Below, in pieces: positions 3,001 to 3,798 of a DNA stretch of 47,057 bases. Location of the stretch: positions 62,001 to 109,057 of the forward strand of contig MU271201.1 in assembly GCA_021432655.1 (NCBI GenBank), written 5' to 3'. The DNA comes from Atractiella rhizophila. Taxonomy: Eukaryota. Below the pieces are notes generated by a model. The model did not search any database and was not told where the DNA came from. It saw only the letters and a program-made list of their open reading frames with translations. Position numbers and translations under genes: made by a program. Position 1 is the first letter of the stretch, and every line of letters begins with the position of its first letter.

Positions 3001-3798
3001 CAAATCTACAAGCGGCACGGTTAGTACTTCGCTGATGTATGGAACAACGGTCGTTAGGCAAGTGAGATGGCTAGCGTGGAGGTTCTGTGTAAAGTGAAGC
3101 TTCCTTCCACATGCAGGAACCCCTCGCGTATTCAAAACCTATCGCTACAATCATAATAGAAGTATAAAATGAACATGGAATGTCCTCCATGATAAAAATC
3201 CATGTATTTATTGGGCCTACTGTGCTCGAGCCTCATAGATAATCACCACTTCCAACTCTTGGCAACTAATGCACCGTCGTGCTGCTTCTGTACGGGCGAA
3301 GCGACGACACCAGTTCAACACATGTACACAACATTATAATGGCATAGTCCAAAGCATTCACTCTACGTTTTTCAACAGCATACAAATGCTGCGTATTGAC
3401 TGTCACGAAGTGACCCTGCGCCATTGCAGCAGGGACTACTTTGGCAAATGGACCAGATGCAGCAGAAAAGAAGCAGAGTTATTCACCTCCCCCCTGTGTA
3501 GAAGCATATGAGGAGAGCGAGACCTAGCGAAGCTAAATAAAGACTTCGCAGTCACCAACTCCAACAGCCACGTACACCACTTTGCAGCACCGTCAAAGGA
3601 AGAGACTTACACAACACTAGCAGGTCTATCCAACCTCCACCATCTGACCCAACAGCCAATCACTACCAGCAGCAGCACCATTTTGACCTCTCCCCTCGTC
3701 ACATGCTGCAGGCCGCCGCCGAGGAAGTATCCTGTGGTGGGAGGTGGCTTGGAATATCGCTTGGAGAAGGACGGCGGGGGCAGCGAAGGGGAGAACAT
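92..3798 (-). CDS. PMT1: Dolichyl-phosphate-mannose:protein O-mannosyltransferase, Pmt1-type, multi-exon
   Basis: Exon 3611-3798 ends WVRWWRLDRPASVV and joins, across a 605-nt intron (3006-3610, GTAAGT..TAG), to [30 protein letters not shown]. Later exons give SRLILLDSPL, VKWVGLFT, MIR-domain motifs (GGYLHSH, KRLHSHD) and RQLFLHHYLPAL, then an acidic tail ending at 92. The start codon and the Pmt1 versus Pmt2 assignment are inferred. Confidence 0.92.
3006..3610 (-). other. 605-nt structured spliceosomal intron in PMT1
   Basis: GTAAGT donor, TACTAAC branch point and TAG acceptor; splicing restores the SVV-FDEVHF motif. The intron ends pair with each other and there are many internal hairpins. 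Confidence 0.85.

Follow-up and report, generated by a model that had tools for sequence, protein, structure and literature searches.

Why does a gene in a fungus with otherwise short introns carry a first intron of 605 nt, and does pairing between the two ends of this intron serve its splicing? The locus is a PMT gene on the minus strand of a 47,057-nt stretch of Atractiella rhizophila contig MU271201.1 (that stretch is hereafter the window). The initial annotation of this stretch had described a three-part helix that closes the intron, leaving an effective intron of 56 nt, together with a second set of splice signals that could define an intron within the intron.

The ORFs flanking the intron match the Pfam families PMT (PF02366, 9.2e-41) and PMT_4TMC (PF16192, 8.5e-47), and the best named relatives of the gene are PMT1-type proteins of Microbotryomycetes, with about 55% identity. 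By homology, the host gene is a PMT1-type dolichyl-phosphate-mannose protein mannosyltransferase (O-mannosyltransferase), in agreement with the PMT1 identity first proposed for it. Exon 1 opens with an ATG at 3798 and ends in ...DRPASVV, the last Val codon being split GT/A by the intron (Table 1). In RNA contigs of three of four runs (X3, X4 and X6), exons 1 and 2 are joined exactly at 3005/3611; the 605 nt skipped have CT..AC ends when read on the plus strand. In the fourth run, X7, no contig spans this joint. The intron boundaries given in the initial annotation are thus exact. The RNA contigs of the four runs hold no joint within intron 1 besides the 605-nt skip, and contigs cannot reveal rare intermediates. 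Removal of the intron restores the conserved reading frame of the protein, and the joined sequence matches PMT relatives. With GT-AG borders, a branch box, precise removal from RNA and a restored frame, intron 1 has the attributes of a U2-type intron; it is a genuine, correctly spliced and correctly annotated first intron of a fungal PMT gene. The branch A is probably 3021, 15 nt 5' of the 3' splice site, judged by the consensus. Upstream of the coding part, a contig of X3, 148 nt long, turns back on itself at 3862, which is joined to 3746 with a single additional G; such fold-back joints are often assembled from transcript 5' ends, and this one suggests that transcription starts near 3862. 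A tandem cattggtcca duplication also lies in the 5' leader, at about 3925-3945.

Table 1 Features of the PMT gene and its first intron (positions in the window)
Feature	Positions	Strand	Basis and remarks
Exon 1, coding part, PMT gene	3611..3798	-	ORF list, tblastn to P0027, RNA contigs reaching 3775-3801
Intron 1, 605 nt, U2-type GT-AG, phase 2	3006..3610	-	sequence and RNA contigs
5' splice site GTAAGT, intron 1	3605..3610	-	sequence, RNA contigs
5' strands of predicted closing helix (H1-H3)	3565..3594	-	sequence, pair probabilities, isolated duplex
Internal donor-like GTACGT	3570..3575	-	only GTRNGT inside intron 1 besides the real donor; in H2/H3 loop and start of H3
Hairpin GCGAAG/CTTCGC	3521..3553	-	z -3.18 for 3518-3556; 1/200 shuffles as stable
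Three perfect short hairpins (CCCTGC/GCAGGG, GTCAC/GTGAC, CAGCAT/ATGCTG), closed by TAGTCC/GGACTA	3345..3438	-	z -2.17
3' strands of predicted closing helix (H3-H1)	3046..3073	-	sequence, pair probabilities, isolated duplex
Internal branch-like CCTAAC	3053..3058	-	only other NCTRAY; overlaps end of H2 and H1/H2 loop
Internal acceptor-like CAG	3032..3034	-	22 nt past inner branch A
Branch-point box TACTAAC (perfect), intron 1	3020..3026	-	sequence
3' splice site TAG, intron 1	3006..3008	-	sequence, RNA contigs
Exon 2 (ends ...KEIGK)	2852..3005	-	RNA contigs, tblastn
Intron 2, 47 nt	2805..2851	-	joint 2804/2852 in contigs of X3, X4, X7

The comparative context of the intron, namely its shared position and its anomalous size, is the main new result. 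Later PMT introns in the window are about 56 and 49 nt long (tblastn gaps), and two introns of the isocitrate lyase (ICL) gene in the window are about 55 and 53 nt long. For a wider comparison, a profile built from 16 PMT1-type proteins recovered 79 metagenomic PMT loci, of which 55 were kept; the other 24 were left out, as the stretch fetched for them carries no DEVHFG motif. Coding sequence runs uninterrupted across the position of intron 1 in 20 of the 55. An intron lies at the identical phase-2 site in 34, with GT donors, AG acceptors and a length of 37-99 nt (median 52), these 34 loci amounting to about 29 distinct ones once identical combinations of length, donor and peptide are merged by eye. 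One further locus, L076, has an intron of 155 nt at this site. The position, in phase 2 within the Val codon preceding FDEVHFG, is therefore common to 35 of the 55 loci, with a size range of 37-155 nt, and intron 1 is about ten times the usual size for its position. Because the position is shared and the intron there is normally about 50 nt long, intron 1 appears to be an old short intron that was expanded by about 550 nt; on this comparison, unique non-coding sequence of that length has been added in this lineage at an ancient intron position. The introns of the 79 distant loci do not align to intron 1 (best E 0.81), and a first metagenome scan with the exon-3 protein had returned 34 pattern matches and no relatives.

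Some side observations belong to this comparison. The frame of L072 and L076, both of the GG type, stops immediately past DEVHFGG, indicating a further intron directly downstream of the shared one; at the spot following DEVHFGG, the named gene models P0022 and P0083 have alignment gaps, which suggests mis-predicted exons there. Within the window, one exon of the ICL gene shows 100% identity to a protein named isocitrate lyase [Atractiella rhizophila] at NCBI, which places the window in this basidiomycete or in a species very near to it. The ICL exons at 21005 and 21621 are separated by an apparent intron of about 620 nt (21006-21620). It contains one of the two runs of N in the window (21162-21586, 425 bases; the other is 23832-24601, 770 bases). 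The ICL gene may hold a second long intron, the length of which is unreadable through the 425 N, and 21006-21620 was left out of the size comparison. On the plus strand, 7012-7590 is a single-exon ORF of 192 aa that matches RNase P/MRP subunit p29 (PF01868, 5e-24).

We next consider the helix proposed to close the intron. It is composed of three parts on the minus strand: H1 pairs GACGGT (3594-3589) with ACCGTT (3051-3046), H2 pairs GCAAAGTGG (3585-3577) with TCACTTGC (3065-3058), leaving one bulged A, and H3 pairs GTGGCTG (3571-3565) with TAGCCAT (3073-3067). Outside H1, the outermost helix, 16 + 40 nt remain. H1-H3 are all contained in the full-length MFE fold of the intron; like the internal helices and the inner signals, they are located precisely where the initial annotation had placed them. 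In the full-length fold, pair probabilities are 0.46-0.50 for H1, 0.15-0.46 for H2 and 0.14-0.27 for H3, and the isolated three-part duplex has a predicted energy of -20.8 kcal/mol. The closing helix is thus thermodynamically plausible. It has a rival in a local hairpin of the 5' strand within the first 71 nt (-18.7 kcal/mol), which could form about 500 nt of transcription before the closing helix.

Plausible pairing is to be judged against chance, and by any measure tried the closure of intron 1 is no more than chance. The MFE of the whole intron is -180.1 kcal/mol, compared with -182.4 +/- 8.4 kcal/mol in 20 shuffles, 11 of which fold at least equally well (z +0.28). A fold no more stable than that of shuffles is what the initial annotation had itself named as refuting its proposal, and on this result the structural half of the proposal falls. 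Between the first 80 nt and the 76 nt that precede the branch box, the best duplex reaches -39.7, against -35.1 +/- 4.7 in shuffles; 157 of 1000 shuffles have a 5'-end to 3'-end duplex that is as good. Of the other segment pairs inside intron 1, 22 of 351 match the end-to-end duplex or better it.

Nor are the two ends brought unusually close. [quoted passage not shown] In shuffles that keep the splice signals and randomize the core by dinucleotides, they are 21.2 +/- 6.4 steps apart, and 57 of 66 are as close as intron 1 or closer. The same is true of 49 of 60 unrelated natural 605-nt segments of the window (19.7 +/- 9.4). Of the 60 segments, 14 contain a 6-bp stack that bridges the ends with a probability no lower than that in intron 1 (0.46). 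On average, both the shuffles and the natural segments exceed intron 1 in compactness. Because both kinds of control are equally or more closed, end closure is generic for RNAs of such length, in keeping with the message carried by the title of PMC3017586, 'The ends of a large RNA molecule are necessarily close'. In the predicted folds, the ends of intron 1 lie within about 30 graph steps and those of the controls at the same distance or closer, so that intron 1 does not differ from the generic case as that paper puts it. End closeness here is a property of a 605-nt folded RNA and is not demonstrably selected.

A more specific precedent is the zipper stem of long Saccharomyces cerevisiae introns (for example, RPS17B and RPL7B). 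By the rule of PMC12350175, such a stem lies more than 10 nt past the 5' splice site and more than 20 nt before the branch point, with a total linker of 42-85 nt. We applied these rules through our own re-implementation. The stem of intron 1 that qualifies is H2 in the MFE fold, with 7 bp (nt 26-33 / 547-553), -4.9 kcal/mol and linkers of 61 nt. H1 satisfies the 10/20-nt limits (16 and 24 nt), but its linker of 16 + 24 = 40 nt is just below the published minimum of 42 nt. A qualifying zipper stem is also present in the MFE fold of 39 of 222 shuffles, and in 33 of these it is at least as stable as H2. The yeast introns, as that source presents them, have the same geometry, a similar length (400-600 nt) and a perfect UACUAAC box, as intron 1 does. 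The differences are that the stem of intron 1 is weak by the rule and no better than in shuffles, that it is predicted only, and that its host is a basidiomycete with otherwise about 50-nt introns.

That the intron might be closed by a zipper stem nevertheless deserves weighing. [quoted passage not shown] The presence of the helix in the MFE fold, the H1 pair probabilities and the energy of the isolated duplex speak for it, as does the size of the intron, about ten times the usual, at which an aid to splicing is conceivable; moreover, the strands of the helix cover the only cryptic donor and the only cryptic branch site. Against this stand the failure of every measure to set the helix apart from chance, with controls that are on average more compact, the short linker of H1, and the competing 5' hairpin, which is available as soon as it is transcribed. 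We regard a selected zipper stem as unlikely.

The second proposal, an intron within the intron, concerns the inner set of signals (GTACGT, CCTAAC and CAG; Table 1). All three are present, as had been claimed, and excision of 3575..3032 (544 nt) would leave an outer intron of 61 nt. In base-shuffled cores, the mean number of such donors is 1.59 and that of such branch boxes 2.16, and at least one complete set is present in 43% of the cores; the mere presence of an inner set is therefore uninformative. Its placement is less common. Of 5000 dinucleotide shuffles, 130 (2.6%) have a set that spares the real donor and branch box and leaves 40-100 nt as the outer intron, in a test that was defined after the data were seen. 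The placement of the nested signals is the sole somewhat unusual part of the observation. The effective intron of 56 nt and the outer intron of 61 nt both happen to equal the usual size for this intron. By arithmetic, splicing that combined an inner with an outer site would leave a further 26 or 35 nt in the product and cause a frameshift. Because the inner donor and branch site lie in or beside the strands of the helix, the helix and a nested route would compete, and not cooperate, at any moment. The inner GUACGU, CCUAAC and CAG are most likely cryptic sites.

Two classes of fungal introns come to mind in this context. In stwintrons, known from Pezizomycotina and Lipomyces, an inner intron interrupts the donor, branch site or acceptor of an outer one (as characterized in PMC8469720 and PMC6616335). 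Like them, intron 1 belongs to a nuclear gene of a fungus and has inner U2 signals nested between its outer ones, and the ends of some stwintron families are complementary. However, the outer GTAAGT, TACTAAC and TAG of intron 1 are each contiguous in the DNA, with the inner unit 3575..3032 between them. As no outer splice element is interrupted, intron 1 is not a stwintron; the whole outer intron can be, and is, removed. Introner-like elements, for their part, are many similar copies at new intron positions, with stable predicted folds (in the account taken from PMC3609843), and transposon-derived introners are also on record (PMC9860276). Intron 1 shares with these elements a length above that of regular introns, splice signals of its own and complementary ends. 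It differs from them in that its position is ancient, being shared by 35 of 55 loci, although an element could have been inserted into an existing intron; in that it shows neither a stable fold (z +0.28) nor terminal inverted repeats (1093 of 2000 shuffles are as good); and in that there is no second copy within the 47-kb window.

Could the inner 544 nt nonetheless be an intron or introner-like insertion in an ancestral intron of about 61 nt, excised first, or alternatively, by nested splicing? The residue of 61 nt is as long as this intron usually is in relatives, where the position holds 37-155 nt, and this hints at the inner unit as an inserted intron-like element. It is delimited by the only complete inner set, located at both ends of the intron, in a placement that few shuffles reproduce, and there are precedents in fungi both for introner-like elements and for symmetrical stwintrons whose ends are complementary (PMC8469720, PMC3609843). 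Several results point the other way. The 605-nt skip is the only joint in RNA contigs (in which rare intermediates would not be visible), the uninterrupted outer signals do not require two steps, a second copy and a Watson-Crick terminal repeat are absent (the former in 47 kb), the fold is unlike that of introner-like elements, and a full inner set occurs by chance in 43% of shuffles, the 2.6% test having been set post hoc. Literature searches on stwintrons and on fungal introner-like elements listed no introner-type insertion inside an intron for Atractiellomycetes. We consider such a nested insertion improbable, and similarly doubtful the related notion that the inner 544 nt, with partly complementary ends, are a mobile or copied intron-like element removable by nested splicing.

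The interior of the intron has one locally distinctive part. The cluster of three hairpins around 3345-3438 is the most structured part of intron 1 (z -2.79 for 3330-3450); the four-way junction closed by TAGTCC/GGACTA and its hairpins appear in the MFE fold of the 94 nt 3345-3438, and the full-length centroid still contains the three small hairpins. In a scan of 150 windows of 120 nt on the minus strand of 1500-6000 (mean z -0.04, sd 0.97), two have z <= -2: one in intron 1 (3360-3479, z -3.02) and one upstream of the gene (4440-4559). The value weakens to -1.83 for 3340-3480, and the enclosing helix varies with the segment chosen. The plus (antisense) strand of the central domain folds somewhat less well than the sense strand (z -1.3 to -1.9). 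Separately, the upstream segment, 4440-4559 on the minus strand, lies some 650 nt before the start codon of the PMT gene. Its z was -3.3 in the scan; folded by itself, it has an MFE of -42.9 kcal/mol and a z of -2.99, and none of 200 shuffles is as stable. A long imperfect hairpin (GGUGCGGUGCCACUACGAGACUGG...CCAGUAUUGUAGAAGGUGCGGCGCC) forms part of it, and it has no Rfam match. Of the other internal helices, the hairpin GCGAAG/CTTCGC stands out among shuffles (Table 1), in a region, 3518-3556, that was chosen after the helix was seen. The hairpin at 3270-3312 (GTCGT-GCTTC/GAAGC-ACGAC) is ordinary, with a z of -0.28, and was set aside; the one variant contig over it, from X7, changes 3305 without a change at the partner 3279, breaking a pair, with further changes at 3293 and 3295 in the loop.

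The central domain of about 3330-3480 might hold a non-coding RNA with a defined structure, or else a regulatory element that binds protein, an idea that is compatible with the other readings. In its favour are the local z of -2.8 to -3.0, which makes it one of only two such windows among 150, the persistence of the three hairpins and the somewhat better folding of the sense strand; first introns are also often long, a general feature of eukaryotic genes according to PMC2518113. Yet the domain has no Rfam family, tRNA or snoRNA boxes, its enclosing architecture shifts with the segment folded, with z falling to -1.83 for 3340-3480, and the X3 contigs, at an exon depth of 365.7, give no cover of the intron. 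We hold a functional central element to be a long shot.

Searches for other identities of the intron interior returned nothing. Rfam gives no match at the gathering score in the whole window, and on 2700-4000 only a chance-level lncRNA match (E = 1). A tRNA-like cloverleaf for the four-way junction was rejected, as ARAGORN reports 0, and so was an intronic snoRNA: the sense strand is without a CTGA D box or an exact TGATGA and has no Rfam match better than E = 1, H/ACA architecture having been judged by motif counts and by eye only. A coding remnant was likewise rejected, as the 11 stop-to-stop ORFs of the intron have no Pfam match over the cut-off (the best is DUF3289, 17.9 bits versus 25). 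An origin as a MITE or from terminal inverted repeats was dismissed at the level of the DNA, on a Watson-Crick end score of 14, which equals the shuffle mean and is reached by 1093 of 2000 shuffles; by eye, there is no convincing target-site duplication at intron 1. Against its own reverse complement the intron is ordinary (78 of 200 shuffles as good). A repeat origin was discarded because no repeat touches intron 1 in the repeat search and blastn against the rest of the 47-kb window gives a best E of 0.28.

The RNA cover of the interior is counted as evidence neither way, and this holds both for the stretches of the intron without cover and for the one contig inside it. The latter is a 203-nt contig of X7 at 3142-3343, with 8 differences and a depth of 2.8, similar to the depth of the X7 exon contigs (2.0-4.7); X7 is RNA by its intron-2 joint. 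The contig could be pre-mRNA, DNA carry-over or a stable intron fragment of a relative. X3 has no cover of intron 1 despite its exon depth.

Taken together, we favour an ordinary U2-type intron that is removed in one step, with an unselected closing helix and cryptic inner signals, at a probability of roughly 0.65. This reading starts from the boundaries, the splicing product, the conserved position, the anomalous size and the lack of excess structure, all of which are observed. A short ancient intron of about 50 nt would have gained about 550 nt of unique non-coding sequence, and the resulting intron would be removed in one piece via its strong outer signals GUAAGU, UACUAAC and UAG. Generic RNA compaction would hold the splice site close to the branch point without selection, and the three-part helix would be one populated solution of that compaction. 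One-step removal and the lack of a function for the helix are what we infer, and the helix may still have a function that single-sequence shuffle tests would miss. Some results run counter to the ordinary reading: the helix is in the MFE fold with a probability of up to 0.5, H2 fits the published zipper-stem geometry, a nested set that leaves an outer intron of normal size is found in only 130 of 5000 shuffles, and the central domain 3330-3480 is among the 2 of 150 windows with z <= -2.

For studies of intron structure, the closing helix is a caution against taking long-range intron helices as function. What is mildly interesting about the locus is the roughly ten-fold, lineage-specific growth of an ancient short intron where the other introns are about 50 nt long. 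If the inner unit proved to be repeated, or the helix to be needed for splicing, this would bear on intron growth and on the tolerance of rare long introns in fungi that depend on short ones.
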